Shown here: positions 4,411 through 61,539 of the stretch, one piece after another
Position numbering within the stretch: position 1 is the stretch's first letter
How the letters are laid out: each line of letters opens with the position of its first letter
NCBI GenBank assembly: GCA_017416425.1
Contig: JAFQCL010000029.1
Span: 28,703-92,702 of the forward strand
Direction of reading: 5' to 3'
Length of the DNA: 64,000 bases
Source of the DNA: Clostridia bacterium
Lineage (GTDB): Bacteria; Bacillota; Clostridia; Christensenellales; CAG-138
The notes under the pieces: model-generated
Seen by the model: the letters and a program-made list of their open reading frames with translations, nothing else
What the model was told of the DNA's origin: nothing
The model's database searches: none
Translations under genes and position numbers: made by a program

Positions 4411-4752
4411 ATGACGGTAAAGGAATTATGTGAAAAACTGGGTGGAAAGCTTTTAACACAAGCAGGCGGCGACAACGATATAACCTGCGGCTGCAGCTGT
4501 GACCTTTTAAGCTGGGTGATGGCAAAGGGCGCTCCCGGCTGCGCCTGGGTCACTGTTCAAACGCATATGAACGTGATAGCCGTGGCATCGCTGCATGATA
4601 TGGCCTGCGTAATATGCCCGGAAGGTCTAATGCCGGATGAAAATGTGCTCAAAAAAGCGGAGGAAGAGGAAATTGCAGTCATATCCTCCGGCGATACCGG
4701 GTACGCAATCTGTTGTAAAATGCATGAAGCCGGCATAATGCCCGAACGCTGA
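4411..4752 (+). CDS. DRTGG-domain protein (second copy)
   Basis: 113 aa. ...CDLLSWVMAKGAPGCAWVTVQTHMNVIAVASLHDMACVICPEG... is typical of the DRTGG family. Confidence 0.65.
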   Translation: MTVKELCEKLGGKLLTQAGGDNDITCGCSCDLLSWVMAKGAPGCAWVTVQTHMNVIAVASLHDMACVICPEGLMPDENVLKKAEEEEIAVISSGDTGYAICCKMHEAGIMPER

Positions 4753-15185: not shown

Positions 15186-17762
15186 CTATTTTGTATCAAA
15201 CCAGCTTTTGCCGGTGTGTACCTCCGCGATAAGCGGAACAGATAGAGTAAGCGCATTTTCCATACAATCGGTCAAAATGTCTGAAACTTCGGCGGCCTCA
15301 TCCTCGGGGCAATCGATTATAAGCTCATCATGAACCTGAAGTATCAGCTTTGCGCGAAGCTCTCTCTTTTTAAGCTCCCTGTCAACATTTACCATGGCAA
15401 GCTTTATTATATCCGCCGCGCTGCCTTGTATGGGCATATTCATGGCTATGCGCTCGCCGGAGGATCTCACGTTAGCGTTACTTGATTTAAGTTCAGGCAT
15501 GGCTCTTCTTCTTGAAAAGATAGTCTTTGCAAAACCCGCTTTTCTTGCCTCCTCTACGGAGCTCTTCATGTATTTTGCTACTCCGTCATAGCGTGAAAGG
15601 TACATATTTATGTATTCACTCGCTCGTTTTCTTGTAATACCCAGATTTTTTGCAAGCCCGAAATCCGATATTCCATAGACAATACCGAAATTTACGGCTT
15701 TTGCGGCTGAGCGCTGATCGGCTGTGACATCTTCGGGAGCGATATTGAATACCTCGGCGGCAGTGCTTCTGTGTATATCGGCTTTGTTTATAAACGCGGT
15801 TTGCATACGAACATCTCCGCTTATGTGAGATAGTACGCGGAGCTCTATCTGTGAATAATCAGCACCGACAAGCACGTTTCCGGGGCTTGCTATGAATGCC
15901 TTTCGTATCTCCCTGCCCTCGGCTGTTCTTACGGGTATGTTTTGAAGGTTTGGTTCTGTGCTCGATATTCTTCCCGTAGCGGTTATAGTCTGGTGGAAGC
16001 TCGTATGGATTCGTCCGTCTTCGCCAATAAGCGCTCCCATGCCGTCTATATAGGTGCTTTTGAGCTTGGTTAAAAAGCGGTATTCCGATATTAGGCCGAT
16101 TATTTCGTGCTTGTCCATAAGCGCTTCAAGTGTGTCGGCGTCGGTGGAATAGCCTGTTTTGGTTTTTTTAATGGGCGGGAGGTTGAGCTTTTCAAAGAGT
16201 ATGTGGCCAAGCTGCTTTGTTGAGAGTATGGAAAAGTGCTCTCCCGCAAGCTCGTATATTCGGGAAGAAAGCGCATGAAGTCTTTTCCCAAAATCCTCGC
16301 CTATGGCCGTCAAAATGCTCTTATCGGTACAAAATCCCGCCGACTCCATGGAAAAGAGCACCGATACCAGAGGAAGCTCTATTTGAGTATAAAGCTTTAG
16401 CATGTTAAGCGCAAAGAGCGACTCCATTAATAATGGCTCAAGCGCAAATAGGGATGCCGCCTTGTTATAGGGGATGCCTACCATATCAAGCAGGCTCCTT
16501 AGATCCTTTGACGGGTTTATGGCGTGAAGCAGATAATCGGCTATCCGGGCATCAAACAGCTTGCAGCAAAGCCTGACATTCCATCTTTCAAGGATGTGCA
16601 TGAAGGCTTTCGCATCGAATATCAAAAGCTTTATATCCGGCTGTGAAAAGATGGGCATAAGGGGCGAAAGTATACTTTTAAGCTCAACCTCATCCGATGT
16701 ATCGGAAAGCTTATAAAGCTTTGTTTCAGAGGAGGCGATATAAAAGCCTTCGTCCATATGTATGGCAAATACTCCGCCAAGCTCTATTTCGGAAAATAGC
16801 GATGCCGCCTTTTCGGGCGTATCTATAAGCGCAAATTGAGGCTCGCTTGGGGTTTCATGTATAGGCTCGGGGGTGGGAGCCGGTGCTTTTGAAAGCTCCT
16901 TTTTAAGCCTGCCAAGGATACTTCTTAGCTGAAGCCTTTCAAGGGCAGGTACGGCTTTTTCCATACAGCTTATATCAAAAACGCAATCAAACAGCGTGGT
17001 ATCAAGAGGTATGTTTCTATCGATGGTGGCAAGCTTATGCGAAAGCCTTGCGCTGTTCGCATTTTCAAGCAGCTTTTTCTGAAGGGCGCCCTTTTCGTTG
17101 TGTGCGTTATTTAAAGCTTCCTCTGCGGTACCGTATTTTTCAAGCAGACGAAGCGCCGTCTTTTCACCAACACCGCTTATTCCGGGTATATTATCTGAAG
17201 CATCACCCATAAGCGCCTTTAGGTCTATGATCTGAGAAGGCGAAAGCCCATAGTCTAAAAGCAGTCTTTCTTTTGTGTATTCTATTGTTTCCGATATGCC
17301 CTTTTTGGTCATAAGGACATGTGTGGTATTGGAGATAAGCTGAAGCGCGTCCCTGTCGCCTGTAACGAGCGTAACGGCTATGCCGTTTTTTTCCGCCACA
17401 AGGGAAAGCGTTCCCAGTATATCATCGGCTTCATAGCCCGCGCATTCGCATACGGCGATCCCCATATCATGAAGTATGTCCCTTATGATGGCCATTTGGG
17501 TCTTAAGCTCATCCGGAGCGGGCTTTCTTGTGCCCTTATATTCGGGGTAAAGGCTATGGCGGAATGTTTCGCCTTTTACATCAAACGCAACGGCCATGTA
17601 TTCGGGATGCCTTGCTATAAGCGGCATGAGCATGGATAAAAAACCATGGATCGCGTTTGTAGGCGTTCCATCCGCGCTTGTCATGTTGTTTAATGCGTAA
17701 AAAGCTCTGTACATCAGGCTGTTTCCATCGATTATTATAAACTGATCCATATTTTTGACCAT
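15186..17762 (-). CDS. polA: DNA polymerase I
   Basis: 5'-nuclease domain (IIIDGNSLMYRAFYAL) and family A polymerase motifs (DYSQIELRVLSH, QVHDELI). Start chosen at ATG 17762 (MVKNMDQF...). 17750 and the track's 17822 are alternatives. See the leader feature at 17763-17827. Confidence 0.9.
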   Translation of the reverse strand: MVKNMDQFIIIDGNSLMYRAFYALNNMTSADGTPTNAIHGFLSMLMPLIARHPEYMAVAFDVKGETFRHSLYPEYKGTRKPAPDELKTQMAIIRDILHDMGIAVCECAGYEADDILGTLSLVAEKNGIAVTLVTGDRDALQLISNTTHVLMTKKGISETIEYTKERLLLDYGLSPSQIIDLKALMGDASDNIPGISGVGEKTALRLLEKYGTAEEALNNAHNEKGALQKKLLENANSARLSHKLATIDRNIPLDTTLFDCVFDISCMEKAVPALERLQLRSILGRLKKELSKAPAPTPEPIHETPSEPQFALIDTPEKAASLFSEIELGGVFAIHMDEGFYIASSETKLYKLSDTSDEVELKSILSPLMPIFSQPDIKLLIFDAKAFMHILERWNVRLCCKLFDARIADYLLHAINPSKDLRSLLDMVGIPYNKAASLFALEPLLMESLFALNMLKLYTQIELPLVSVLFSMESAGFCTDKSILTAIGEDFGKRLHALSSRIYELAGEHFSILSTKQLGHILFEKLNLPPIKKTKTGYSTDADTLEALMDKHEIIGLISEYRFLTKLKSTYIDGMGALIGEDGRIHTSFHQTITATGRISSTEPNLQNIPVRTAEGREIRKAFIASPGNVLVGADYSQIELRVLSHISGDVRMQTAFINKADIHRSTAAEVFNIAPEDVTADQRSAAKAVNFGIVYGISDFGLAKNLGITRKRASEYINMYLSRYDGVAKYMKSSVEEARKAGFAKTIFSRRRAMPELKSSNANVRSSGERIAMNMPIQGSAADIIKLAMVNVDRELKKRELRAKLILQVHDELIIDCPEDEAAEVSDILTDCMENALTLSVPLIAEVHTGKSWFDTK

Positions 17763-17827
17763 AATTTTCGCATAGCGAAAGTATCCTTTCTTATGGAATT
17801 GGGACTGGATTTGTGTTAACACAAAAT
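17763..17827 (-). promoter_or_regulatory. Conserved structured intercistronic leader, copy 1 (upstream of polA)
   Basis: Minus strand: TTTGTG-ttaa-CACAAA (P1, 17810-17825), CCAGTCCCAATTCCATA, AGAAAGGA (SD, 17784-17791), TTTCGC-tat-GCGAAA (P2, 17766-17780), att-ATG. The same blocks in the same order occur at 57082-57213 and 61110-61224. Confidence 0.6.
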
Positions 17828-17845
17828 CCCGGCCGGGCTGCTGTT

Positions 17846-19195
17846 TTATTTTAATACGTCCTGCGCCAAAGAGGGCGCTGCCGTAATTATATCATGCACT
17901 ATGGGCGAGGGGGTGACGGGTATATCCGAAAAGCTGAAAGCCGATTTAGTAAGCGATATTACATCGTTTAGCCTTTTTGTATCGTTTGCGTAAAGCGTAG
18001 CTATGCTTTCGCCCTGCATTACAGCATCACCTACACGTTTTTTTAGTATTATACCCACCGCCGGGTCTATAACATCGTACATTTTTTCACGTCCAGCGCC
18101 GAGCATGGCGGCCGCAATGCCTATTTTATGAGCATCTACGGCGTTTATGTAGCCTGTCTTATCGGAGGGAATATCAAGTTTGATGCTTGCATTCTCAAGT
18201 TTGTTTATATCGAGCATTGATGTATCCCCGCCAAGCTCCTCTATGAGTGAAAGGAACTTTTCTTTCGCAAGACCGCTTCTTATAGCCTCTTCAATGAGCG
18301 GGTAGGCATCCTTTGGCGTATCCACTACTTGGGACAAATAAAGCATGTATGCGGCAAGAAGCGTTGAAATGTCATACAGCGGATTGCCTTTTGTCATTTT
18401 TCCTGACAGCAACAAAAGCGCTTCGGATACTTCAAGCCTGTTTCCAATGGAAAGACCAAGCGGCTGATTCATATCGGTTATTATAGCGATCGTGCGCACG
18501 CCAAGCTCTTCTCCTATCATGGTCATGACCTGAGCAAGGCATCTTGCGTCATCAAGCGTCTCCATGAAGGCGCCTTTACCTACCTTTACATCAAGCAGTA
18601 TCGCGTTTGAGCCTGCGGCTATCTTTTTGCTCATTATGCTCGAGGCTATAAGGGGGATGCTTGCGACCGTTGCGGTAACGTCACGAAGCGCGTACATGAG
18701 CTTGTCCGCAGGGACCAGCTCCTTGCTCTGACCTATAACGCAGCAGCCGATACGATTTACGATATCCATAAGCTCTGTTTCGCTTCGTTTAGTGCATACT
18801 CCGGGTATTGATTCTAACTTATCGATCGTACCTCCTGTGTGAGAGAGGCCGCGCCCGGACATTTTAGCTACCTTTCCGCCGCAGGCGGCCACGATGGGTA
18901 CGGTGATGAGCGTTGTGGTATCTCCAACGCCGCCCGTGGAATGCTTATCCACCTTTATACCGGGTATTTGTGAGAGGTCGAGCGTTTTGCCGGTATCTAT
19001 CATGAGCTTTGTAAGCCATATGGTTTCACAAAGCGACATTCCCTTAAGGCATATCGCCATCATAAACGCTGACATTTGGTAATCGGGGATATCTCCCTTT
19101 GTAAAGCCGTTCAGCATATGTGAAAGCTCATCGAAGGAGAGTTCATGTCCTTGTCTTTTTTTGTCGATGATATCTACGGTTCGCACACTATCCAT
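17846..19195 (-). CDS. pdp: Pyrimidine-nucleoside phosphorylase
   Basis: 449 aa. KHSTGGVGDTT motif and the overall thymidine/pyrimidine-nucleoside phosphorylase family pattern. Confidence 0.85.
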   Translation of the reverse strand: MDSVRTVDIIDKKRQGHELSFDELSHMLNGFTKGDIPDYQMSAFMMAICLKGMSLCETIWLTKLMIDTGKTLDLSQIPGIKVDKHSTGGVGDTTTLITVPIVAACGGKVAKMSGRGLSHTGGTIDKLESIPGVCTKRSETELMDIVNRIGCCVIGQSKELVPADKLMYALRDVTATVASIPLIASSIMSKKIAAGSNAILLDVKVGKGAFMETLDDARCLAQVMTMIGEELGVRTIAIITDMNQPLGLSIGNRLEVSEALLLLSGKMTKGNPLYDISTLLAAYMLYLSQVVDTPKDAYPLIEEAIRSGLAKEKFLSLIEELGGDTSMLDINKLENASIKLDIPSDKTGYINAVDAHKIGIAAAMLGAGREKMYDVIDPAVGIILKKRVGDAVMQGESIATLYANDTKRLNDVISLTKSAFSFSDIPVTPSPIVHDIITAAPSLAQDVLK

Positions 19196-33082: not shown

Positions 33083-34408
33083 CTATACGGTAAGCGTGCC
33101 TTCTTCGGAATGTATTACAAGGTATATATTGACCTCATCGCCTGTCATGGCATCTATATAGACGATGTAGTCGTTGTCACCGGCGCTGCATTTAAATTCA
33201 TAGCATAAAGCTTCGGTCTGAGGCGTTATTGGGACTATAGCAAGTCCCTGATCGTCTATGGTCAGATTTCCCGACACCATAGCCTCTGCTTCCTCCATGG
33301 ATATAGCGGGCTCGTCAAAATCCCTTTCTGTATGACTGAACAGGTAGTTTCTCGCGTCTATACCTATTATGCTGTCGTCCGTTCGGTCTATCCATACCTT
33401 TACAAGGTCGTTATAAACTATTGCCCCGTCAAGCTCAAAGGCATAGTTTATTATGGCTGCTCCGTTTGTGTATTGTCCATAGGTAGGCACCATGTTTTCG
33501 TAGCCTATGGATGAAAGATACTCCTTTCCGATATCGTTAAGCCTTTGTATCTCATTATCATCGGGTATGCCGGAGATATCGCTCTTAGGGGAGGCCATCA
33601 TCCATATGACATGCCCACCTTGCCTGCTTATTGATACGTAGATGTTCCTGCCATCCTCTGTGGAGCCGGTAAAATCAAATGCCGGTATCGAACCATCGGA
33701 ATCAGTATCAAATTCGATGTTTGCTCCCTCCGGGATAAGCTCCTTCGCCTTTTCAAGCGCTGTGTCTTGATCCACTTCATCACCGGTAAGCCCTTTGGGC
33801 TCGGCTTTTTCAACACCCTCCGAAAAGGGTCCGTCATATATCAGCGTTGGGAATTGCTCGGTGCCCTCATTGTCGGCAAATTCTTCGCTTTGGGTGTAAT
33901 AGGCTTCATTATCCAGTATATCGCAGTAGATATCTCCGTTTGCTATGCGCGTTGTAAGTTCGTTTGATATTTCAACGCATTTTTGATGCAGGGAGCTTAG
34001 CTGTGAAGAATCGTCACTGGAAAACATCTGCCCCCCAAGTACCTTTTTTGTAAGCGTGCGGGCATAATCACCTACTCTTGTGATAAAGCTTGAAAGTTCA
34101 AGGGTATCCGCGTGCGATACTGGGAGCTGTGATATAAGGCTCGAGCATGCGCCGCTATAGCGCCATATATCATCTAGCAGCAGCACCATACGGCTTTGTG
34201 TGCCTGTAACCATGAGCTTATTGAGTGAAAGCTCCAAATTCCCGAGGTTTTCGGACAGCTCCATATACGTGCGTCTGTACATGGCATCCGTTGCCGAAGC
34301 ATAGGTATCAGCTCTTTTTGATTCCGAAACAGCCCATGAAGCAGTGCCGATGAGCGCGGCGGCGAGCAGAACCGGTATTACTATAGCAAGTGTTTTTTTA
34401 GCGTTCAT
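33083..34408 (-). CDS. ypeB: Germination protein YpeB
   Basis: 441 aa. N-terminal TM anchor and C-terminal PepSY-like repeats. Directly downstream of sleB, as in Bacillus and Clostridium. Confidence 0.8.
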   Translation of the reverse strand: MNAKKTLAIVIPVLLAAALIGTASWAVSESKRADTYASATDAMYRRTYMELSENLGNLELSLNKLMVTGTQSRMVLLLDDIWRYSGACSSLISQLPVSHADTLELSSFITRVGDYARTLTKKVLGGQMFSSDDSSQLSSLHQKCVEISNELTTRIANGDIYCDILDNEAYYTQSEEFADNEGTEQFPTLIYDGPFSEGVEKAEPKGLTGDEVDQDTALEKAKELIPEGANIEFDTDSDGSIPAFDFTGSTEDGRNIYVSISRQGGHVIWMMASPKSDISGIPDDNEIQRLNDIGKEYLSSIGYENMVPTYGQYTNGAAIINYAFELDGAIVYNDLVKVWIDRTDDSIIGIDARNYLFSHTERDFDEPAISMEEAEAMVSGNLTIDDQGLAIVPITPQTEALCYEFKCSAGDNDYIVYIDAMTGDEVNIYLVIHSEEGTLTV

Positions 34409-34449
34409 ATAGGTTTCCTTTCTACAGGGAGATCAATTAAAGACCCCAT

Positions 34450-35145
34450 CTATTTACAGAACACGTGCTGACCTATCCTAACGGATATTGGACGGCTCAG
34501 CATCCATTTGTTGGTCGTTTTAGCTGGGTTATAATAATAGAGGCAGCCTCCCGTGGGGTCCCAGCCGTTCATGGCGTCTCTTGCGGCATTTATAGCCGTT
34601 TGATCGGGCGAAAGGTTTATCTGACCATCTGCTACTACAGAAAAGGCTCCGCTTTGATAAATAACGCCAGCTATCGAATTGGGAAATTTAGAGCTTCGCA
34701 CTCTGTTTAATACGACTGCTGCGACCGCTACCTGACCCTTGTAGCTTTCACCGCGAGCTTCTCCATAGATAAGTCTTGCCAGAAGATTTAGATCATTTGA
34801 AGAATAGCCTCCTGAGCCGCTGGATGTGCTTGCGGAGCCAAGCGTCATACCAAGCGCAGCTGAAGTCGCAGGGCCGACTATACCGTCAACGGTCAACCCA
34901 TTTTTCCTCTGGAATGATTTTACAGCGGTGTAGGTTTGGTAGCCGTATATTCCGTCAACGCTGCCGGAATAGTATCCCCAGCGCTTGAGCTTTGTTTGAA
35001 GTGTGTAGACTTGATCCCCCCTTGAGCCATAGCGCAGTACTGTTGCGGCAAGCGCTGTACCCGTATGGGCAAGCAACAAGGCGGCGAGCAACATCAGGGT
35101 AAGCGCCATCTTTAGCTTTACGCCGGAAGGAGTATGTTTTTTCAT
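34450..35145 (-). CDS. sleB: Spore cortex-lytic enzyme SleB
   Basis: Signal peptide, PG_binding_1 repeat (GDQVYTLQTKLKRWGYYSGSVDGIYGYQTYTAVKSFQ) and a Hydrolase_2 domain (LLARLIYGEARGESYKGQVAVAAVVLNRV). Confidence 0.85.
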   Translation of the reverse strand: MKKHTPSGVKLKMALTLMLLAALLLAHTGTALAATVLRYGSRGDQVYTLQTKLKRWGYYSGSVDGIYGYQTYTAVKSFQRKNGLTVDGIVGPATSAALGMTLGSASTSSGSGGYSSNDLNLLARLIYGEARGESYKGQVAVAAVVLNRVRSSKFPNSIAGVIYQSGAFSVVADGQINLSPDQTAINAARDAMNGWDPTGGCLYYYNPAKTTNKWMLSRPISVRIGQHVFCK

Positions 35146-35217
35146 AGTTTACCTCCGATTTTATATAGCATTTATCTACAGTCTTACCGATTTTAGCCTA
35201 TTTATTCGCAACCGGGC

Positions 35218-35246
35218 TTGAAAGTCTCGCAATAGTGTAGTATCAT
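35218..35246 (+). promoter_or_regulatory. Candidate promoter of the glg operon
   Basis: TTGAAA (35218-23), 17 nt spacer, TATCAT (35241-46). Confidence 0.4.
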
Positions 35247-35279
35247 GGTAGTATAATATAGAAAGTAGGGCTTTGATCA

Positions 35280-37142
35280 TTGATAGACGAGAAAGGAGCC
35301 TGGTTTTTCAATACGGGCAGATCATACGACGCATATAAGCGATTTGGCTGTCACAAAATGTCGGACGGCTCATTTTCATTCGCGCTTTGGGCTCCGCATG
35401 CGCTTTCTGTGAGCGTGGTAGGGGACTTTAACGGATGGGATCGCCAAAACGATAAAATGCATCGCATATTGGATACCGGCATATGGTATTGCGTATGCGA
35501 TAATGTAAAAGAGGGAGATTGCTATAAGTTTTCCATTGAAAATCAGGATTATTCCGTACACATGAAAGCGGATCCATTTGCCTTTTATACGCAAAAAAGG
35601 CCGGATAATGCCTCTATAGCGACAGCGGACTGCAAATTTATCTGGAGCGATGAAGTCTATTTAAAGGATAGAAAAAGATATAATGGTAAGGATGCCCCCA
35701 TATGCATATACGAGGTTCATTTGGGCTCGTGGCGCAAGGGGCTTTTATATAGGCAGCTTATAGATACCCTTATACCCTATGTAAAGGATATGGGCTATAC
35801 GCATATAGAGCTTATGCCCATAATGGAGCATCCGCTTGATGATAGTTGGGGCTATCAGGTAACTGGCTTTTTTTCACCGACGTCAAGATACGGTACGGGC
35901 TATGAGCTTAAAATGTTTATAGACGCCTGCCACCAAAACGGCATAGGAGTGATACTGGATTTTGTGGCGGCACACTTCCCAAAGGATGAGCATGGCCTTG
36001 CCCGCTTTGACGGCACGCCTCTTTTTGAACACCATGACTTTAGAAGAAGCGAGCAAAGGGACTGGGGCACGTTTATGTTTGACTACTCAAAGCCACAGGT
36101 GAGAAGTTTTATGCTCTCCTGCGCCATGTATTGGCTTTGTGAATATCATTTTGATGGACTAAGGGTGGATGCGGTGAGCTTTATGCTGTACCATGATTAC
36201 TGCAAAGCCCCTTCGGATGTGCTTAAAAACGAGCATGGAGGCAGTGAGAATATAGAGGCGATGGCTTTTTTCAAAGAGCTTTCAGATATAGTCGAGAAAG
36301 AAACTCCGGGCGCTTTGCTGATAGCTGAGGAGAGCACCGCTTTCCCAAATGTAACGGGCGACACAAAAAAAGGCTCATTGGGTTTTAATTTCAAATGGAA
36401 TATGGGCTACATGCATGATACCTTAAAATACATGGAGCATGATATGCGGGGTAGGCAACATAAGCATGAGTACCTGACATTCCCCATGTGCTATGCTTAT
36501 GCAGAGCGATTTATACTGCCCTTTTCGCATGACGAGGTCGTCTATGGGAAGCGTTCGCTGATAGGGCGGATGCAAGGCTCCTATGATGAGAGATTTATGA
36601 AACTGAGGCTGCTTTTTCTCTACCAATACACATCGGTAGGAAAAAAGCTTAATTTCATGGGAAACGAATTCGCTCAAATGGATGAGTGGGATTTTAAGAA
36701 GTCGCTTGATTGGAACCTTTTATCATTTCCAAGGCACGAGGAGATGAAACGCTTTTCTCGGGAATTAAACAGGCTTTATCGTGCCTATGACGCCCTGTAT
36801 ACGAGGGAAGATGGCTGGCACGGCTTTTCGTGGATAAGCGTTGACGACCGAGAGAACTGTACTTTAGCCTATATAAGGCATGGCGACCATGGAAGATCAC
36901 TTCTTTGCGTGCTGAACTTCGGAGATAAGACCCTTTATGACTATGAGCTTACATTGCCGCCGGATACGCTTGCCATAAGGCTCATATCTACCAATGAATG
37001 GCAATATGGCGGGACGGGGAGCTGCGCATTTGACAGATTACAAAGCGGCAAAGACGGAATGGTAAAAGTTACGGTATCGCCCCTTGAGGGCTGTGTATAC
37101 GAGCTTATTCGGCAACAATTGTGTTGCTCAAAACTTACTTAA
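35280..37142 (+). CDS. glgB: 1,4-alpha-glucan branching enzyme
   Basis: 620 aa GH13 protein with conserved regions DFVAAHF, GLRVDAV and EESTAFP. The start is a TTG and is uncertain. Confidence 0.85.
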
Positions 37143-37165
37143 AAATAGATACGGAGGTAATGAAC

Positions 37166-38410
37166 ATGATGAGAAAAAAGCTTATCGCAATGCTGCTTGC
37201 CGGCGGACAGGGCAGTAGGCTCGGCGTTTTGACAAACAGAATGGCAAAGCCCGCCGTACCGTTTGGCGGTAAATATCGTATTATCGATTTTCCGCTTTCA
37301 AACTGTGTAAATTCCGATATCGACACGGTAGGTGTGCTTACGCAGTATGAGCCGCTTGAGCTGAACGCGTATCTTGGCACAGGCCAGCCATGGGATCTTG
37401 ACAGGCTGAACGGAGGCGTTTTTGTTCTGCCGCCCTATATGTCGGGAAATAATGGACGCTGGTATTCGGGAACGGCAAATGCCATATGGCAGAATACGGC
37501 ATTTATCGACCGTTATAATCCCGAGCATGTTTTGATACTTTCGGGAGACCATATTTATAAGATGAACTACTCTACCATGTTCCGCTTCCATCTTGAAAGC
37601 GATGCCGATGCTACTATTGCCGTTTTAAAGGTGCCTATGGAGGAGGCAAGCCGCTTTGGGATAATGAATACCGATGCATCCGGAAGGATATTCGAATTTG
37701 AGGAGAAGCCAAAGGCTCCAAAGAGCAATAATGCTTCGATGGGTATATACATATTCAAGTGGGATGTGCTTAAACGCTTCTTGTCGGAGGACGATAAAAA
37801 TGATTCCTCGGCGCATGACTTTGGCAAAAATGTCATCCCGGCGATGCTTGGTGCCGGCTGCAATATGATGGCATATGCGTTTAACGGTTATTGGAAGGAT
37901 GTTGGAACCATATCAAGCCTTTGGGAGGCGAATATGGATCTGTTGACCGACCCGCCGAAACTCGATCTTTATGATAAGGATTGGCGTATATATTCAAAGA
38001 GCGCCGTAATGCCCCCTCACTATATGGGCGCTAACGCGAAGATAGAGCGTTCCATGATAACGGAGGGCAGTGAGGTTTATGGGAGCGTATGCCACAGCGT
38101 GGTGTTTGCTTCGGGAATAATCGAGGAAAATGCGGTGGTGAATGATTCCATTATAATGCCGGGAGCGGTAATAAAGCGTGGGGCGACAGTAAATAAGGCC
38201 ATAATAGGCGAAGGCGCGGTTGTGGGAGAGGGCGCGGAGATAGGCTGCCGGCCAAATGAGAGCGACCCGGAGTTTGAAGCCACACTTACGGGCGATATAA
38301 CGCTTGTAAGCAACAATGTAGAGATATCGGACAAAAAAAGAGTGCCAAGAGGCATGATAGTAACCGGTTCAATGGTGGATAAGCTTAAAGTAAAGGATGG
38401 TATGAACTAA
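37166..38410 (+). CDS. glgC: Glucose-1-phosphate adenylyltransferase
   Basis: LAGGQGSRL...[16 protein letters not shown] motif. ATG 37166 has a GGAGG SD. The track's upstream extension overlaps glgB. Confidence 0.85.
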
Positions 38411-39534
38411 TGATCTTTAATGCTTTTGGACTTGTATATACGGCTGAATCAAATCTGATGCTGAGGGAGCTTACAAATTCACGCTCAATCGCTGCTGTCC
38501 CATATGGAGGAAGGTACCGCTGCATAGATTTTGTGCTCTCAAGCCTTGTAAACTCGGGAATAAGTAATGTTGGCCTTATAATGCAGAAGAATTATCACTC
38601 CATAATGGATCACTTAGGCTCCGGCAAGGAGTGGGATCTAAACAGAAAGCGTGATGGACTTTTCATACTGCCGCCCTTTGTCACAAAGGAGAATACGGGC
38701 ATATATAAAGGAACGGTGGACGCGCTTCATTCGGTAATGGGTTATGTCAGAAGATCATCGCAGAAGTACTGCATATTGACAGGAAGCCATACCATCTACA
38801 ATACCACCTTTAACGATATGCTGAAGCAGCATATAAAGAGCGGCGCTGATATCACGATCATGTACAGCGAGGAAAAAAGCTTTAATCCGGACGATCAGTT
38901 TGACGATTTAAGGCTTACCATGGACGCTTCGGGAAGAGTTGTGGAGCTTGAGATAGACCCATATAGACCAAAGACCAACTATCAATCCTGCGATGTGTTT
39001 ATACTCGAAAAATCGCTTCTTGAATACCTTGTGGAGGATGCGTACGCAAAGAGCTGCTATGATTTTACAAGGGATGTTCTTATTAAAAAGGTAGGCACTC
39101 TTAAGATACACGGCTATAGGTATGATGGCTTTGTTGCAAGGCTTAATTCCGTGGGTATGTATTTTTCAAAGAGCATGGAGCTGCTTAAAAAAGAGGTGAG
39201 GGATGAGCTGTTTAATCAGGAGCACCCCATATACACTAAAGTAAAGGATGAGGTGCCTGCGTTTTATGGAAGGGATGCTAAGATCGTAAACTCATTTGTA
39301 GCCGATGGCTGCGTTATAAACGGCAGAGTTGAAAACAGCATACTATTCAGGGGCGTACATATCGGAAAGGACGTTACGCTTAGAAATTGCATAGTTATGC
39401 AGGCATGTGAGATACAGGATGGCAGCGAGCTTGACTATGTGATAATGGATAAAGGCGTGCTTGTTAAGCGTGGAAGGAGGCTTTCGGGTCATAACAGCTT
39501 CCCGGTAGTTTTAAGAAAGGGGATGACCGTTTAA
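38410..39534 (+). CDS. glgD: Glucose-1-phosphate adenylyltransferase regulatory subunit GlgD
   Basis: GlgC paralogue lacking the GGxGxRL motif (RSIAAVPYGGRYRCIDF). Position between glgC and glgA is typical of Firmicutes. Confidence 0.8.
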   Translation: MIFNAFGLVYTAESNLMLRELTNSRSIAAVPYGGRYRCIDFVLSSLVNSGISNVGLIMQKNYHSIMDHLGSGKEWDLNRKRDGLFILPPFVTKENTGIYKGTVDALHSVMGYVRRSSQKYCILTGSHTIYNTTFNDMLKQHIKSGADITIMYSEEKSFNPDDQFDDLRLTMDASGRVVELEIDPYRPKTNYQSCDVFILEKSLLEYLVEDAYAKSCYDFTRDVLIKKVGTLKIHGYRYDGFVARLNSVGMYFSKSMELLKKEVRDELFNQEHPIYTKVKDEVPAFYGRDAKIVNSFVADGCVINGRVENSILFRGVHIGKDVTLRNCIVMQACEIQDGSELDYVIMDKGVLVKRGRRLSGHNSFPVVLRKGMTV

Positions 39535-40991
39535 TGGCTCTTAATGTTCTGCTTATTGCATCTGAGGCACACCCGTTTGTAAAAACAGGGGGGCTTGGAG
39601 ATGTATCGGGTACGCTTCCCGCCGCCTTAAATCGTATAGGCGTAAATTGCTCCCTTATGCTTCCGATGTATTCTAAAATTTCGAGTGAATATGTAAATAA
39701 AGCGGAGCTTGTAGCTAATTTTGATGTAAAACTCGGCTGGAGGATGCAGCCTTGCTCACTTTTTAGACTCACGCATGGCGGCATTTGTGTGTATCTTATA
39801 GGCAGCGATTATTATTTTAACAGACCATATATCTATGGAGACGGCATGTCCGATGCGGAAAGATTTTCGTTCTTTTGCAAGGCTGCAATAGAGTCCATAC
39901 CGCACCTTGATGAGATTCCGCATGTTTTGCACTTAAATGATTGGCATACGGGTATGATACCCCTGCTTTTAAAGCAGGAATACTTAAAGCATGAGCTGTA
40001 CTCAGGGATAAAAACGCTTTATACCATACATAATCTTCGCTATCAGGGACTATTTGATATGGGAAGTATAAAGGAGCTTTTGTCCATAGATGATGAATAC
40101 GCTACACCCTCCGGCATGGAATACTATGGAAACGCATCGTTTATGAAGGCCGGCATAGTGTTTGCGGACAGGGTAAGCACGGTATCCGAAACATATTCGC
40201 GTGAGATATTAAAAAGCGATGCCGGTGAAGGTCTTGATGGCGTTTTAAGGAGCAGGCAGGATGGGATATACGGAATAATGAACGGTATCGATACTACATC
40301 ATTTGACCCAAACAGCGATCCTTCTATCGAGGCGGGCTTTTCGGCGGATATGCCCGAGAAAAAGGTGCTTTGCAAGGCAGCGCTTCAGCGTGAGATGGGA
40401 CTTTTTTTGGAACCTGATATGCCTCTTATCGGTGTGGTGAGCAGGCTTACGGAGCAAAAGGGTTTTCAGCTTCTAACGGAGTGCATGGATGCTGTATTAA
40501 ATCTTGGTGTGAGCCTTTGCGTGCTGGGCTCGGGCGATGCCTGGATGGAGGAGTATTTTTCACGTATCGCTCATGAAAATCCGGGTCGTGTAGCTTTCTA
40601 TTGCGGCTATAGCGATGCCCTCGCGCGCAGAATATACGCTGGAAGCGATATGATACTTATGCCTTCTCAGTTTGAGCCCTGCGGCATATCGCAGCTTATA
40701 GCCATGAGATACGGCAGCCTTCCTATAGTTCGTGAAACAGGCGGACTTAAGGATAGCGTTGAGCCTTATAATCGCTTTACAAGGCAAGGTACAGGATTTA
40801 CATTTACATTCTTTAATGCGGTGGATATGTATAACGCCATAGAAAGAGCTGTTACATGCTATCATGACAAGGCGGCATTTAACGCGATAAGGCGAAATGC
40901 CATGGATAAAAGCTATGATTGGCTCGTATCGGCGCTGAAGTATAGGAACTTATATGAAAGCATGCGCGGCGCGCCGGAGAATGAGGCGTAA
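39534..40991 (+). CDS. glgA: Glycogen synthase
   Basis: N-terminal SEAHPFVKTGGLGDV motif. 485 aa GT5 protein. Confidence 0.9.
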   Translation: MALNVLLIASEAHPFVKTGGLGDVSGTLPAALNRIGVNCSLMLPMYSKISSEYVNKAELVANFDVKLGWRMQPCSLFRLTHGGICVYLIGSDYYFNRPYIYGDGMSDAERFSFFCKAAIESIPHLDEIPHVLHLNDWHTGMIPLLLKQEYLKHELYSGIKTLYTIHNLRYQGLFDMGSIKELLSIDDEYATPSGMEYYGNASFMKAGIVFADRVSTVSETYSREILKSDAGEGLDGVLRSRQDGIYGIMNGIDTTSFDPNSDPSIEAGFSADMPEKKVLCKAALQREMGLFLEPDMPLIGVVSRLTEQKGFQLLTECMDAVLNLGVSLCVLGSGDAWMEEYFSRIAHENPGRVAFYCGYSDALARRIYAGSDMILMPSQFEPCGISQLIAMRYGSLPIVRETGGLKDSVEPYNRFTRQGTGFTFTFFNAVDMYNAIERAVTCYHDKAAFNAIRRNAMDKSYDWLVSALKYRNLYESMRGAPENEA

Positions 40992-41033
40992 TAATGTAAA
41001 ATGAAAACTTTATGATATGTTTGCCCCCGCCTA

Positions 41034-41061
41034 AGCGTTTTACTTCGAACAGTAAAACGCT
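41034..41061. terminator. Strong hairpin after glgA (putative terminator, no clear U-tract)
   Basis: Perfect 11-bp stem AGCGTTTTACT / AGTAAAACGCT with a 6-nt loop. Confidence 0.45.
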
Positions 41062-41129
41062 ATACGCATTTATGCTATCATTTTTTAACGAAAGAGTGCA
41101 ATAAACTGGAATTTGCAGGAGAAGTTAAA

Positions 41130-41606
41130 ATGAAAGTCGATGTAAAAAAAATAGTAAATATTGATATAAGCATTATAGAAAAGATAACCGTATGGATGTA
41201 TGAATGGTGGGGCGAAAATGAAGGATATAGTTATGATGCAATAAAAAGCTATATGAAATATAGTCTGCAAGAAAAACGTTTGCCTCAAACATATGGTATA
41301 TTTTTAGATGATAACCTGATTGGTATCTATCAATTTAGATTAGATGATTTGTTTGTTCGTCCGGACAGGTATCCCTGGTTGGCAAATGTCTATATTGATG
41401 TTCCTTATAGGAATAAAGGATACGGAAAAGCCTTAATGGAAAGCGTAAAAAGCAATGCGAAACAGTGTTTAAGTTATAATGAAATATATTTATACACAAC
41501 ACATATAGGGTTGTATGAAAAATACGGATGGGAATTTGTTTCGGAAATTGATACATGTTTAGAGCAAAATCGAATACAGAGATTGTATAAACTGAATTTG
41601 GAATAA
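41130..41606 (+). CDS. GNAT-family N-acetyltransferase
   Basis: 158 aa. Acetyl-CoA-binding-like RNKGYGKALM motif. The gene and its flanks are visibly more AT-rich than the neighbours. Confidence 0.7.
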   Translation: MKVDVKKIVNIDISIIEKITVWMYEWWGENEGYSYDAIKSYMKYSLQEKRLPQTYGIFLDDNLIGIYQFRLDDLFVRPDRYPWLANVYIDVPYRNKGYGKALMESVKSNAKQCLSYNEIYLYTTHIGLYEKYGWEFVSEIDTCLEQNRIQRLYKLNLE

Positions 41607-41861
41607 CAAATGAAAATCTATCGGGCGATTGAAGATTCCGGGCACTAAAAAGGGCGCTTCTATGCGCCCATATCGGAAGTCTTGTGCGTCTTGTAAAACT
41701 TTATTTTGGGCCGGCAAAAACAGAATGCAGCGTCTTTATTTGGTCAAGGCAGCGACATCACATTTACGCTGCTATATCGCCTCCGCCCTGTAGACTTGCT
41801 ATCCACAAACGTTATGATAAACCGCTTGCTGTCAGTATTCTTGAAGAGTAGATATCAAATA

Positions 41862-41895
41862 ATCCTCCGCATGATCTCAAACATACGGAGGATTA
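41862..41895. other. 9-bp-stem hairpin downstream of spoIIE (possible terminator)
   Basis: AATCCTCCG-16 nt-CGGAGGATT. Only a weak U-tract on either strand. Confidence 0.35.
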
Positions 41896-41958
41896 ACTGT
41901 TTATGAACACCGCCCTGTAAACGGAGGGCATTTTAGCATGATCTCAAGGATTTTAGCT

Positions 41959-43665
41959 TCAGGTTATACGTCCCACAAGTACGCTCATATCATCGATGCG
42001 CCCTTTATCATGCATGGCGCTTTGAACCAGAGCAATAGCAGCGTCCTCGGCTGTGTTGGCACAGCAAACCTTTTCAAGCAAAGTAGCGATAAGCTCGCTT
42101 CCAAGCGCTTCGGTTATACCGTCCGTCATCATTATAACGCTATCGCCCGGCTTTAGATATACATCCTGTACGAAGGGCTTTGCCTGGGGCAGTATTCCGG
42201 CCGGAAGCGCTTCGGCATATACCGTATGTATTTTGCCTTTTCTTATTATAAAGCTTGGAGGGGCGCCCAGCTTTATAAAAGTAGCCTTGCCGCAGCTTCT
42301 GTTTAAAACAAGCATGTCAAGTGTTGTGTACATATCTCCAGTGCCGTTTGCGATGAGCAGCCTGTTTATGGATGTTATAGCCTCTTTTGGGGCAAATCCG
42401 GCTTTTATAAGTTCGCTTAGCTTAATGAGCGCTCTGCGGCTTTCATTTCTTGCTTCATAGCCCGAACCCATGCCATCTCCCATAAGCATTATGTGCAGCG
42501 CTTCATGCTCAAATATCTCCATGCTATCCCCCGAGCGTTTCATGCCGGCCTTTGGGACACAGGCTTTTCCCACCGATATATTTATTATTGGGGTCTCGGC
42601 TTCGAGAGGACTTGTTATCCTATCCATAAGATTTGATATGGACATGAGCTGTCCATGAGCAAAACTATCACCGGCGGTAAAGGCGTCCGCCATATCTGCT
42701 ACCGCTAAGGAACACTGTTTTAAACTGCGCTTAATACGTATAAGCTCGGTTTCGGCCTGAGAAAGACCCTGTCTTTTTGGAATGAAGCGAGCTATAAGTC
42801 CCTTTGGCGTAAGCATAAATAGTAAAGCTGCAATAACGCTTTCGGCAATGCTTGTAATCCCATCCAGAGGTAAGAATACGGATATGGCAATAGTGCATGC
42901 GATATATCCAATAGAAAGCATAAGTTTGCCGTAGCCTGATATCAGCATGCAAACAAAAGCTGTAAAGCAAAGCGATACGGAAAGCATAGAGGAGTCACCG
43001 CCTATTATGCGCCCTATGCTAAGTGCGATAGCAATGGTTGCGGGCATGCTTTTACATATCAGAAAGCATAACAGAACATAACACGCGATAATGACGCCTA
43101 TTCGTATATTGGCAATATTCAGCATGCCAAATGAGGCGCAAAAAAGCATTGCAAGCGCGGCTATCCCAAGGCGGGCGGATTCAGAAACACTTGCCCTTCG
43201 ATATGACAGTAAAAGACCTTGAAGACCGTTGCATAAAAGCGGACCGCATGCCGTTGATATGATGGCGCACAATATGGAATGAAGCATATCCTCCGTTGAG
43301 CTGCTGAAAAGGGGGATCATAAGTAGCTGCGCCCCGCAGAACATAAGTATACGGTCGAGCCTTGAAAGCCCTTTTTTTATGAGTGCAAGACATATGCAAA
43401 GCGCCGATGCAAGCGCTATCGATGAGGCTATAAAAAGACTTCCGCCTACTATTCCACCGGCTATCCCTGCGAATGTTGCCGTTATCGCGAATCGGCTTTT
43501 TGGCATAAGCCACAGCGCAAGCACCATGCCCGCTCCAAAGGGCATAAGGTACTGGCCGCCTATCATGCCAAAAAGAAGGGTCACTATAAAAAATGAAACA
43601 TGAAATGCTATGTCCGCAATAGCGATATTTTGGGCATAGGCTCTTTTTAAATGAAGCTCCTCCAT
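41959..43665 (-). CDS. spoIIE: Stage II sporulation protein E (short form): polytopic membrane domain + PP2C-type phosphatase
   Basis: 568 aa. About 300 aa of TM helices, then a PP2C/SpoIIE domain (GDSMEIF...LMGDGMGSGYEA...TLDMLVLN...IMMTDGITE...DDMSVLV). Confidence 0.75.
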   Translation of the reverse strand: MEELHLKRAYAQNIAIADIAFHVSFFIVTLLFGMIGGQYLMPFGAGMVLALWLMPKSRFAITATFAGIAGGIVGGSLFIASSIALASALCICLALIKKGLSRLDRILMFCGAQLLMIPLFSSSTEDMLHSILCAIISTACGPLLCNGLQGLLLSYRRASVSESARLGIAALAMLFCASFGMLNIANIRIGVIIACYVLLCFLICKSMPATIAIALSIGRIIGGDSSMLSVSLCFTAFVCMLISGYGKLMLSIGYIACTIAISVFLPLDGITSIAESVIAALLFMLTPKGLIARFIPKRQGLSQAETELIRIKRSLKQCSLAVADMADAFTAGDSFAHGQLMSISNLMDRITSPLEAETPIINISVGKACVPKAGMKRSGDSMEIFEHEALHIMLMGDGMGSGYEARNESRRALIKLSELIKAGFAPKEAITSINRLLIANGTGDMYTTLDMLVLNRSCGKATFIKLGAPPSFIIRKGKIHTVYAEALPAGILPQAKPFVQDVYLKPGDSVIMMTDGITEALGSELIATLLEKVCCANTAEDAAIALVQSAMHDKGRIDDMSVLVGRIT

Positions 43666-43855
43666 ATTTATTCCATCCTTTGTACTTGATTTGCACTCAT
43701 TTTTACACGTTTTTTCACATGTGGCTGTCGATGTGTATGCGAAATAAAGCGCAAATTTTGTGTAAAGGAACCGTATATGTTAAGATTATAATTAATTGAA
43801 AAAATTCGCCGATATTTATGCTATAATCTATTTTAAGAAAATAGGAGGATAATGT

Positions 43856-45355
43856 ATGGAACTTAATGTTGCAATAGAAAAGTTTAAAAACACCATGAAG
43901 CAGCTTCGGGCGTACAATCATGCCACTAGCCTGCTTTATTACGACTCTGTGACCGGCGCTCCGGCCGGCTGTCAAAAGGGCGTCGGGGATACCATGCAGT
44001 TTTTCAGCGAGGTGGCCTATAAGCTTACGGTAAACGAAGAAGCCTTTTTAGTGCTGGACACGCTTATGGAGCATCTGAATGAGCTCGATCCCATATTAAA
44101 GCGCGAGGTTGAGGAGGCGAATAAATCCGTTCGTGATATGAGAAAGATACCCATGGATGAATATCTTGAAGCAGACAGAGCCTTTAATGACGCTCAATTT
44201 GCATGGCACAAAGCAAAGGTAAGCAACGATTACGCGTCATTTGAGCCGCATCTTGCAAAACTGGTTGATATAACCAAGCGCTTTAGCGGCTATACAGATC
44301 CGGATAAAGATATGTACAACGCTCAGCTTGATAAATATGAAAAAGGGCTTGATAAAGCTACCCTGGATACATATTTCGGTCTTTTAAAGGAAAAGCTTAT
44401 ACCCCTCATCAAGCGGATAGGTGAGGCTGAGCAGATAGATGATTCCTTCCTTTACCGCTCATATCCGATAGAAAAACAGCGTGAGTTTTCAGATTACCTT
44501 ATGCAGGTGATGGGTATAGATCGCACGCATTGCGCCATTTCGGAAACAGAGCATCCATTTACACTTAATTTCAGCAAGTATGATGTGCGCATAACCACTC
44601 ATTATCACGAGAATATGCTGGCAAGCTCTATGTACAGCGTTATACATGAGGGCGGTCACGCGCTTTATGAATTAAATACAGGAGATGACCTCTACGGCAC
44701 TCTGCTTGCAAACGGCGCTTCCATGGGTATGCATGAATGCCAGTCACGATTTTATGAGAATATAATCGGTCGTTCACGTGAATTTATTGAGCTGATATTC
44801 CCGAAAATGCAGGAAATATTTTCTGAGCAGCTCAGCGATGTTACCTCCGAGCAGATGTATCGAGCGGTAAATAAGTGCCAGCCTTCCCTTATAAGAACTG
44901 AGGCCGATGAGCTTACCTATTCCCTGCATATACTTATCCGCTATGAAATAGAAAAGATGCTCTTTGACGGCAGTGTTACTACAAAAGAGCTTCCTGATCT
45001 TTGGAACAGGCTTTATAGGGAGTATCTTGGAGTGGATGTTCCAAACGATACGAATGGAGTGTTGCAGGATTCGCACTGGTCAGGCGGTTCGTTCGGTTAC
45101 TTCCCTTCATATTCGATAGGCAGTGCATATGCGGCACAGATAATGCATCATATGAAAAAGACCATCAATATTTTGGAGGTCATTAAAGATGGCGAGATAC
45201 ATCTTATAACCCAATATCTTGCCGAACGCATCTATAAGTATGGCAAGCTGCTTACTCCGAATGAACTGATTATGAAGTGCTGCGGCGAGCCCTTTGACCC
45301 GCGGTACTATATAGACTATTTGACCGATAAGTTCACGGCGCTTTATGGCTTATAA
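43856..45355 (+). CDS. Carboxypeptidase Taq-like M32 metallopeptidase
   Basis: 499 aa. HEGGHALYE zinc motif and an overall M32 pattern (HPF, IRTEADE, GVLQDSHW). Confidence 0.85.
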   Translation: MELNVAIEKFKNTMKQLRAYNHATSLLYYDSVTGAPAGCQKGVGDTMQFFSEVAYKLTVNEEAFLVLDTLMEHLNELDPILKREVEEANKSVRDMRKIPMDEYLEADRAFNDAQFAWHKAKVSNDYASFEPHLAKLVDITKRFSGYTDPDKDMYNAQLDKYEKGLDKATLDTYFGLLKEKLIPLIKRIGEAEQIDDSFLYRSYPIEKQREFSDYLMQVMGIDRTHCAISETEHPFTLNFSKYDVRITTHYHENMLASSMYSVIHEGGHALYELNTGDDLYGTLLANGASMGMHECQSRFYENIIGRSREFIELIFPKMQEIFSEQLSDVTSEQMYRAVNKCQPSLIRTEADELTYSLHILIRYEIEKMLFDGSVTTKELPDLWNRLYREYLGVDVPNDTNGVLQDSHWSGGSFGYFPSYSIGSAYAAQIMHHMKKTINILEVIKDGEIHLITQYLAERIYKYGKLLTPNELIMKCCGEPFDPRYYIDYLTDKFTALYGL

Positions 45356-56656: not shown

Positions 56657-57081
56657 GCCATAGACCTCCGAATGCGAAACAGCTCACATCCATAGTCAAC
56701 TACCTGACCATTTTTTACGCATATTTCCATTAAAGTTCCGCCGTGATCGGCCGTTATCTCGTTCATGAGCTTCATCGACTCGATTATGCAAAGCTTGCTT
56801 CCGGGCTGGACCCTGTCGCCGACCTTAACAAAGGGTTCGGCATTTTCAGCGGGCGCTGCGTAGAATGTGCCTATCATTGGCGAAGAGACGCTTATGTGAT
56901 CGGAAGAAGGCTCAAAAGCGGCAGGCTGGGTTTGAATCTGAGCGCTGACAGGGGTCACCGTAGAAGCGGCAGCTCCTGCGCGCTCAAGACGCACAAAACA
57001 GTCGTTTTCCTTTATTTCAAGTCCGGTAAGCTCCAGCTCCTTCATAAGGACAGCGTATTTTCTGATATCTGATTCATTCAT
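56653..57081 (-). CDS. accB: Biotin carboxyl carrier protein
   Basis: 142 aa. Ala/Pro linker and a biotinyl domain with the CIIESMKLMNEI attachment motif. Confidence 0.85.
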   Translation of the reverse strand: MNESDIRKYAVLMKELELTGLEIKENDCFVRLERAGAAASTVTPVSAQIQTQPAAFEPSSDHISVSSPMIGTFYAAPAENAEPFVKVGDRVQPGSKLCIIESMKLMNEITADHGGTLMEICVKNGQVVDYGCELFRIRRSMA

Positions 57082-57213
57082 AAATATGACTATTACTTTC
57101 GCTGGGCGAAAGACTCCTTTCTACTGGAATTGGAATCGGTTTTGTAAAAATGCAAAGTCAAAGCCGGTAGGCTGATAAGGGCACAAAACACGGTTTGAAA
57201 ATTATTTTTAAAC
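57082..57213 (-). promoter_or_regulatory. Conserved structured intercistronic leader, copy 2 (fabF-accB spacer)
   Basis: Minus strand: AATTTTCAAACCGTGTTTTGTG (box 1), about 37 nt variable sub-hairpin, TACAAAACCGATTCCAATTCCAGT, AGAAAGGAG, CTTTCGC-cca-GCGAAAG (57096-57112), 14 nt, ATG. Aligns block by block with 61110-61224 and 17763-17827. Confidence 0.6.
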
Positions 57214-61510: not shown

Positions 61511-61539
61511 ATTATATCAACAAGCTAATATCTTGTCAA
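61511..61539 (-). promoter_or_regulatory. Consensus sigma-A promoter of the acpP-fab-acc operon
   Basis: Minus strand: TTGACA (61539-61534), 17 nt spacer, TATAAT (61516-61511). Confidence 0.7.

Follow-up and report, generated by a model that had tools for sequence, protein, structure and literature searches.

Why does the spacer in front of a DNA polymerase gene carry the same structured sequence as the spacers in front of two genes of fatty-acid synthesis? The question is raised by a 64,000-nucleotide (nt) stretch of DNA from a Clostridia bacterium (GTDB order Christensenellales, CAG-138; assembly GCA_017416425.1, contig JAFQCL010000029.1, positions 28,703 to 92,702), referred to here as the window. 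A first-pass annotation had noticed that the same blocks recur in the same order on the minus strand before polA, accB and fabK: a hairpin (P1), a Shine-Dalgarno (SD) sequence, and a second hairpin (P2) lying between the SD and the ATG. It took them for a leader of possible regulatory function. Our analysis favours another answer, namely that each of the three leaders is one copy of a dispersed repeat, small and non-autonomous, with its own SD, hairpin and ATG, a reading to which we give a probability of roughly 65%.

Three intercistronic spacers share one motif

The sequence CCAATYCCANNAGAAAGGA has exactly three minus-strand occurrences in the window (17784-17802, 57115-57133 and 61131-61149), against an expectation of 0.04 from shuffled sequence; at least three occurrences were seen in 0 of 100 shuffles. 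The three copies share the motif CCAATYCCA-NN-AGAAAGGA, followed by a YTTTYGC-NNN-GCGAAA hairpin. A search for AGAAAGGA-NN-YTTTYGC-NNN-GCGAAA returns the same three window sites only, even with three mismatches allowed, and none is expected. These counts bear out the recurrence described in the first-pass annotation and support a motif that is non-random and structured. Its positional details hold as well. All three sites lie directly 3' of an upstream stop codon in co-directional gene strings (pdp-polA, fabF-accB and acpP-fabK), AGAAAGGA is used with normal spacing at ypeB, 7 nt ahead of the ATG (34408), the distance from SD to first ATG is 21 nt at polA (17762) and fabK (61109), and the U-G pair in P2 of the fabK copy is present.

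Chance or an assembly artefact can be dismissed as the source of the similarity. No match is expected by chance, three assemblies made independently from the species agree exactly in the polA copy, and copies are identical across independent assemblies from different studies, by which this explanation is already refuted.

The supposition that the motif belongs to no described RNA family was confirmed by an Rfam search. With Rfam 15 at gathering thresholds, the window yields two tRNAs only; permissive searches with the polA copy, the accB copy and the two best-preserved copies, from other genomes (loci L003 and L002), leave every model about 18 bits or more short of its threshold, the best being the molybdenum cofactor (Moco) model at 18 versus 36 bits. 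This sub-threshold Moco riboswitch match (57201-57323, minus strand, E 0.11) spans the end of fabF and the 5' hairpin of the element and was judged a chance match. The two tRNA genes (61775-61845 and 62050-62123, minus strand) stand a short distance upstream of the fab operon. In the literature collection searched, no paper contains the core sequences.

Related genomes have empty sites

Comparison with syntenic loci shows that the element is a lineage-specific insertion and not an ancestral spacer. In a relative whose FabD is 70% identical (L023), the acpP/fabK junction reads CTCAGGAGTAA-ACT-ATG, with no element; in a second relative (L024, FabD 66%), it reads GAGTAA-GTC-ATG, again with no element, and the fabF/accB junction of the same locus is a bare AGAAAGGTGTAA-GCACT-ATG. 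At the polA site, a relative with 58% PolA identity (L029) keeps the order rsmF-pdp-polA-coaE and has a 25-nt pdp-polA spacer with AAAGGAGG 5 nt before the ATG. Empty spacers therefore measure 3 nt (acpP-fabK), 5 nt (fabF-accB) and 25 nt (pdp-polA), each with a canonical SD near the ATG, and at the tight junctions the final codons of the upstream gene contain the SD of the downstream one. The same junctions of the window hold 95-190 nt of element. The window keeps AGAAAGGTGTAA and CTCAGGAGTAA, now separated from the conserved start codon by 132 and 185 nt of element, respectively.

The same placement recurs throughout the family. In eight of the nine distinct copies known, the element sits between the original SD of the gene and its start codon, and the host SD is found in the 5' flank of the accB and fabK copies of the window and of the copies at L001, L005 and L022. 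Two copies, those of L001 and L005, are part of a 5' untranslated region (UTR), between the host SD (AAGAAAGGA and GAAAGGAGG, respectively) and the ATG; in the host DNA upstream, L001 has a TG-extended TTTACA-17-TACAAT promoter-like site and L005 a TG-extended TATAAT.

The 5' flank often repeats the SD region of the element, as in AGAAAGGTGT versus AGAAAGGAGT (window 57113-57122 versus 57216-57225). At L002, CCACAAGGAA in the last uvrC codons is matched by CCACAAGAAA in the element (4610-4619 versus 4735-4744). Most of these repeats, the CCACAAG match at L002 excepted, are accounted for by insertion just after the host SD.

Organization of the complete element

The blocks recognized at first are only the 3' half of a larger repeat of about 95-185 nt, which measures about 130-170 nt when complete. 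In the nine-copy alignment, the full unit opens with an AT-rich hairpin, H0 (GTTTGAAAAT/ATTTTCAAAC), and a conserved block, CGTGTTTTGTGAC. These are followed by a hairpin of lineage-variable sequence, H1, with a T-run behind it (GATTTTGTG), by a small hairpin, P1' (TTTTGTG-NNNN-CACAAAA), and by a conserved pyrimidine-rich block, CCAGTCCCAATTCCACA. The extended SD AGAAAGGA and P2 come next. The 3' end reads (T)CATGGTCA plus 4-5 AT-rich nt and then the ATG of the gene, with about 12 nt between the ATG of the element and that of the host. Among the copies of the window, all on the minus strand, the polA copy lacks H0 and the conserved 5' block, and the fabK copy has an extra partial copy.

Copy 1 occupies 17751-17845, from the pdp stop (17846-17848) to the conserved polA start, and matches nhmmer profile positions 54-156 with an E value of 3e-28; its site is the one that is empty in L029. 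P1' of this copy (TTTGTG-TTAA-CACAAA, 17810-17825) shows compensatory changes in three of seven pairs across the nine copies. The pyrimidine-rich block CCAGTCCCAATTCCATA together with the extended SD (17784-17791) spans 17784-17808, and its columns are invariant in the A6 alignment. P2 (TTTCGC-TAT-GCGAAA, 17766-17780), identified by sequence, pattern scan and pairing analysis, separates the SD from the first ATG (17760-17762). The latter is borne by the element, lies in frame with polA and would add the residues MVKN. The conserved polA start, placed by homology (MDQFIIIDGNS...), is at 17748-17750. The first-pass annotation had equated P1 of polA with a long-range pairing of the fab copies (GTTTTGTG...ACAAAAC); the nine-copy alignment instead matches it to the local hairpin P1', of which the fab copies have a degenerate form. 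CCGTGTTTTGTG, farther upstream, forms a 5' block of its own and is missing from the 5'-truncated polA copy.

Copy 2 is a full element (57082-57213, nhmmer E 1e-39) that reaches from the fabF stop (57214-57216) to the accB ATG (57079-57081), at the site that is empty in L024. Its H0 (57193-57213, one mismatch) and conserved 5' block CCGTGTTTTGTG (57182-57193) together cover 57182-57213. A weak H1, AGCC-TACC-GGCT, follows at 57162-57173 and leads into T-rich sequence. The conserved block, the SD (57115-57122) and P2 (CTTTCGC-CCA-GCGAAAG, 57096-57112) extend over 57096-57133, and the position of the first ATG reads ATA (57091-57093).

Copy 3, also a full element (61101-61231, nhmmer E 4e-37), follows the ancestral acpP stop (TAA, 61232-61234) and has its SD at 61131-61138, P2 at 61113-61127 and the first ATG at 61107-61109. 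An orthologue is present in L022, a sister species of the window organism (FabD 88% identical), and the site is empty in L023 and L024. Directly behind copy 3, a fourth, partial copy was detected with the nhmmer profile (61058-61104). It has AATTTTCAAGCCGTGTTTTGTG as its 5' block and ends in the common 3' tail, CTGGTCATAGTT, but lacks an SD, and fills 61047-61100 up to the conserved fabK ATG (61044-61046); L022 has the same arrangement.

Two observations concern the genes around copy 3. The acpP gene of the window has one A fewer than that of L022 in the run GAGAAAAAA(A)CTCAGGAG (61225-61240, minus strand), which shifts the frame near its end. The shifted frame stops two codons later at a TAA in the 5' hairpin of the element, giving a protein of 76 amino acids (aa) ending in KKLRSKV, as compared with 74 aa ending in KKTQE in L022; thus the element supplies the stop codon of the upstream gene. 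Upstream of acpP lies a perfect TTGACA-17-TATAAT promoter with a TG extension (61511-61539, minus strand), which is probably the promoter of the fab operon and would put copies 2 and 3 in one transcript.

At L005 (4835-4880, minus strand), the orphaned host SD GAAAGGAGG is followed 5 nt on by a TTG-started 10-codon open reading frame (ORF) that crosses the 5' hairpin and is closed by the TGA in the GTTTTGTGAC block; no other copy has one. A riboswitch or attenuator in the 5'-UTR copies of L001 and L005 was considered and rejected, since the 10-codon leader ORF is found only in L005. A coding role was rejected as well: the frame QSQFHKKGxFRxAK is open in most copies, but it is hypervariable at the codon of the P2 loop (Y, P, P, I, F, F, R), an in-frame TAG interrupts it in copy 2, and there are no protein homologues.

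A small family in gut Clostridia

The nine distinct copies are distributed over about five uncultured Clostridia genomes. A core scan of 185,579 species genomes with the pattern CCNNTNCCAATYCCANNAGAAAGGA, both hairpins being unconstrained, gave four true matches in three uncultured Clostridia metagenome-assembled genomes (MAGs) from ruminant and other guts, and two chance matches. MAG RGIG4697 holds two copies, and two other MAGs and a metagenome contig set hold one each. The copy in the contig set, the ninth, was reached with an X-padded protein query made by translating the element, through a 43-aa ORF called inside it; an exhaustive protein search with the translated element gave nothing beyond that ORF. 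Several copies per genome are thus found (three in the 64-kb window, two in RGIG4697), and eight of the nine abut a start codon.

A strict-pattern scan of JGI metagenomes returned 14 matches, all chance and none a true copy; the two with an extended match sit in apparent coding sequence. Three scans of viral contigs gave no match, nor did blastn of the element against plasmid and phage collections.

The genes at 33083-45355 of the window (YpeB, a SpoIIE-domain protein, glycogen branching enzyme, starch synthase and M32 carboxypeptidase) point to a spore-forming, glycogen-storing member of the Clostridia. The closest PolA from any other species shares only 58% identity, so this lineage is poorly sampled.

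Pairing is maintained in the hairpins

In the nine-copy alignment, 88.9% of the P1' and P2 cells are paired, as compared with 31-56% when the 3' partners are slid. Changes on both sides occur in 5 of 16 pairs. Three of these are in P1' (U-A to G-C, U-A to C-G and G-C to A-U), and two are covarying pairs of outer P2 (A-U, U-A, G-C); three further P2 changes are U-G wobbles. The earlier claim that a paired P2 is maintained between the SD and the next ATG is therefore sustained, by compensatory changes and by U-G changes on the sense strand. Because the wobble pairs occur on the sense strand only, the hairpins act in mRNA or in sense-strand single-stranded DNA. This covariation is moderate evidence and not proof, the nine sequences being related and 11-16 of 500 shuffles reaching the observed values. 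Outside this pair of hairpins, lineages differ in H0 by a U-A to C-G swap and by an insertion that is itself paired. Two long-range pairings (5' block with 3' tail; GUGAC with AGUC) are not conserved across copies.

Two of the hairpins resemble terminators. H1 is terminator-like on the sense strand at L001, L002 and L005. On the antisense strand, five copies (window 17764-17782 and 57096-57112, plus strand; L001, L002 and L005) give a terminator-like score for P2 with the TCCTTTCT behind it, which is the SD complement; this signal could halt antisense transcription or could arise simply from the sequence of the SD. These features would suit an element that acts mainly in transcription, as an attenuator or insulator within operons, with H1 and its T-run terminating sense transcripts and P2 with TCCTTTCT terminating antisense ones, and so sets the ratio of upstream to downstream gene. 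We regard such a role as very improbable. In none of the three window copies, which stand before essential genes, is H1 strong enough to score, and the antisense tail is merely the SD complement. Moreover, strong termination would silence the genes behind the element: a scan for promoters inside the element, confined to the sigma-70 consensus, gave borderline matches of 9/12 in copy 2 (partly within fabF), L001 and copy 3 (two of them antisense), and none in copy 1 or L002.

The element carries a probable initiation module

The element supplies an 8-nt SD and, 21 nt from it, an ATG, with a hairpin of 6-9 base pairs in the interval. All eight gene-adjacent copies have AGAAAGGA unchanged, and the first ATG is present in six of the eight, in frame in five and as an ATGA overlap in one. 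The sole copy that does not adjoin a start codon has its SD decayed to AGAAAGCA and its ATG to ACG, which suggests that elsewhere the SD and ATG are kept because the downstream gene needs them.

The ATGs that the first-pass annotation named as protein starts need correction. Homology of PolA begins at ATG 17750 (MDQFIIIDGN) and that of FabK at ATG 61046 (MIKTPLCEMLGIEYP), so the conserved starts are the second ATGs, 12 nt farther downstream for polA and 63 nt for fabK. The element explains the conflicting starts in annotation: PolA has 854 aa in NCBI (MBQ3552661.1) and 858 aa by other gene callers, some of which take the element-borne ATG as the start, and FabK is called with 335 aa in the window and L022 but with 314 aa in relatives that lack the element. 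At fabK, the 51 nt between the first and the genuine ATG are a partial copy, and the frame stays open over 21 codons in both orthologues despite ten amino-acid differences. In the accB copy, where the first-ATG position reads ATA, the SD lies 33 nt from the sole usable ATG (57081). At L002 (4572-4590, minus strand), the ATG of the element opens a 4-codon ORF, ATG GTC AAA ATA TGA, whose stop overlaps the rsmD start as ATGA; this classic translational-coupling arrangement results from a tail shorter by 1 nt.

These features suggest how an inserted copy could be tolerated. Insertion would push the host SD more than 100 nt from the start codon, and the downstream gene would then depend on the initiation module of the element. 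Folding of P2 would bring AGAAAGGA from 21 nt to about 0-6 nt of the element AUG. Use of that AUG would add 4 residues to PolA and 21 to FabK. With translation restored in this way, the element might be tolerated in essential operons. The predicted folds also provide a basis for a possible switch, in that the 5' arm of P2 can pair with either the SD or the 3' arm of P2; P2 in isolation is predicted at -9.1 kcal/mol and the alternative pairing of its 5' arm (CUUUC) with the SD at -4.6 kcal/mol.

Nearly neutral drift and probable horizontal spread

A genuine cis-regulatory mRNA leader, through which a protein, small RNA or ligand would co-ordinate polA, accB and fabK as a post-transcriptional regulon, would account for the conserved single-stranded blocks, the covariation-supported hairpins, the high similarity of sequence across distant hosts and an SD that can alternate between free and masked states in predicted folds. 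Such a leader, which the first-pass annotation had proposed as shared by polA and fatty-acid synthesis genes, is nevertheless unlikely. Syntenic relatives lack the element at all three window sites, and Rfam has no match to it. The downstream genes differ in every genome and have no common function; they are polA, accB, fabK, rsmD-coaD and genes for a lipoprotein peptidyl-prolyl isomerase, a KH-domain protein encoded after rpsP and a SleB-like hydrolase. The rate of change speaks against it too. The fabK-site copy and its L022 orthologue are 78% identical, as compared with 72-87% at third positions and 93-99% at first and second positions of the flanking genes. Since the identity of the element is close to that of third positions, most of the element drifts nearly neutrally, at about the synonymous rate. 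By part, the same pair is 87% identical in the 5' block, 83% in the SD block and 67% in the H1 hairpin.

The UvrC proteins of the window organism and RGIG4697 are only 36% identical. The 72-nt 3' half of the polA copy is 83-85% identical to RGIG4697-type copies, as compared with 72-74% to the fab copies of its own genome. Taken with the empty sites in closer relatives, this similarity between distant hosts points to horizontal spread, which would have reached the window genome on at least two separate occasions. The first-pass annotation had named a strain-specific recent duplication without conservation as a result that would count against its reading; half of this applies, in that the insertion is lineage-specific, but the family recurs in distantly related hosts.

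How the element might move

Spread among gut Clostridia would have been strand-specific and independent of terminal inverted repeats (TIRs). No TIRs were found; the repeat search gives local hairpins only (H0, H1, P1' and P2), with no end-to-end pair. Every 5' junction of the element follows AA. A target-site duplication of TAA, AAA or TA can be read on both sides of several copies, not consistently, in flanks that are AT-rich. No transposase partner was found in the fetched loci, and none of the ten large window ORFs compared with Pfam is a transposase.

Ends of insertion sequences (IS) of the IS200/IS605 kind offer one model. The repeat would be a decayed left end, or a hairpin-ended miniature derivative, of such an IS, mobilized in the form of single-stranded DNA by a trans-acting Y1 transposase, with the terminator hairpin, structured 5' UTR, SD and ATG as remains of the start of a lost transposase gene. 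The ends of these IS usually resemble one another, and the two end hairpins of the element do not; no tnpA or full-length relative occurs in any fetched locus, and the resemblance is architectural only. It comprises the lack of TIRs and of a clear target-site duplication, the subterminal strand-specific hairpins with G-U pairs on one strand only, the terminator-like H1, the AA before every 5' junction, and an SD beside a hairpin about 110-140 nt from the left end, as in the published IS200 left end (PMC4513863). On balance, we consider this origin decidedly unlikely.

A bolder variant is that the family is new mobile DNA which homes to the gap between SD and start codon, moves horizontally between distant gut Clostridia and serves as a portable, possibly switchable initiation cassette. 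Homing might proceed by recognition of the purine-rich SD through an intermediate of single-stranded DNA or RNA. We consider this variant improbable.

Several points weigh against the dispersed repeat that we favour. First, no transposase partner, consistent target-site duplication or TIR was found, so its mobility is inferred from distribution only. Second, copy number looks low, with four true matches in 185,579 genomes, although the strict pattern misses two of the nine known copies. Third, the gene at L003 and accB read ACG or ATA at the position of the first ATG, which leaves 33-35 nt between the SD and the real ATG, a gap that folding of P2 would shorten to about 12-14 nt. Fourth, in predicted folds the GGA core is often paired with UCC from the conserved block, or the 5' arm of P2 with the SD, so the SD may be partly masked, or may switch. 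Finally, the conserved blocks drift slightly more slowly than H1, and some host-level function may be reflected in this.

Comparison with known repeats and split initiation sites

The nearest known kind is the class of Neisseria REP2 and Borrelia IR-A. These repeats measure 120-180 bp, have no TIRs, contain internal stem-loops and carry a ribosome-binding site plus an ATG fused to downstream ORFs; Neisseria REP2 and Borrelia IR-A/IR-B are thought to derive from a duplicated 5' UTR (PMC3184786). Like them, the element is dispersed upstream of ORFs, lacks TIRs, and has internal hairpins and its own SD and ATG. It differs in having no evident promoter, which REP2 and IR-A do carry, and in its mostly intra-operonic location between a native SD and the start codon, with a hairpin between SD and ATG. 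Its hosts belong to an unrelated phylum, and copies are common to hosts with only 36% identity in UvrC. Homology of sequence with REP2 or IR-A is unlikely, their hosts being of different phyla.

As far as the summary of Supply et al. (1997) in PMC3184786 goes, mycobacterial interspersed repetitive units (MIRUs) are short intergenic repeats that are transcribed in polycistronic mRNA, show empty and filled sites, and preserve flanking translation. The element is likewise intercistronic and translation-preserving, with empty and filled sites. MIRUs differ in being 40-100 bp long, often tandem, and made of small ORFs that overlap the stop and start codons of their neighbours; the element supplies a fresh SD-hairpin-ATG. 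Features of the MIRU type were confined to a stop/start overlap in L002 and a partial tandem copy at the fabK site.

The SD-AUG arrangement has its closest counterpart in phage T4. In genes 38 and 25, a hairpin shortens the distance between SD and AUG from 22-27 nt to 5-11 nt, the gene 25 case being intercistronic (PMC3014915). The 21 nt between SD and AUG in the element would similarly be reduced to about 0-6 nt by the predicted P2. The T4 sites are single-locus phage features, whereas here the arrangement is a module of a dispersed repeat, with a predicted function. In the left end of IS200, nt 12-34 form a terminator and nt 69-138 a structured 5' UTR (PMC4513863). The element has the same succession of terminator hairpin, structured 5' UTR with a strong SD, and ATG within about 140 nt (PMC4513863). 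In IS200, however, a stem sequesters the SD and the ATG opens tnpA, whereas in the element the main hairpin lies past the SD and the ATG leads into host genes.

Correia, ERIC and RUP elements are small, non-autonomous repeats that are co-transcribed with host genes, can change their expression, and have both empty and filled sites. The element shares with these miniature inverted-repeat transposable elements its empty and filled sites in related genomes. Their TIRs and TA duplications set them apart; neither is evident in the element.

Discussion

The family of dispersed insertion repeats with a putative hairpin-bridged initiation module is real and previously undescribed. It reveals no new regulatory link between DNA repair and lipid synthesis. 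What it shows is how a selfish or neutral repeat can enter the tightest junctions of essential operons (fab, polA and the rpsP operon) and, by bringing initiation signals of its own, do no polar damage. To our knowledge, the textbook cases of a hairpin-bridged SD-AUG have until now been phage T4 genes, and the family would provide a natural set of such sites in Firmicutes-type bacteria. The high similarity of its copies, despite hosts as distant as 36% identity in UvrC, marks the exchange of DNA within ruminant gut communities.

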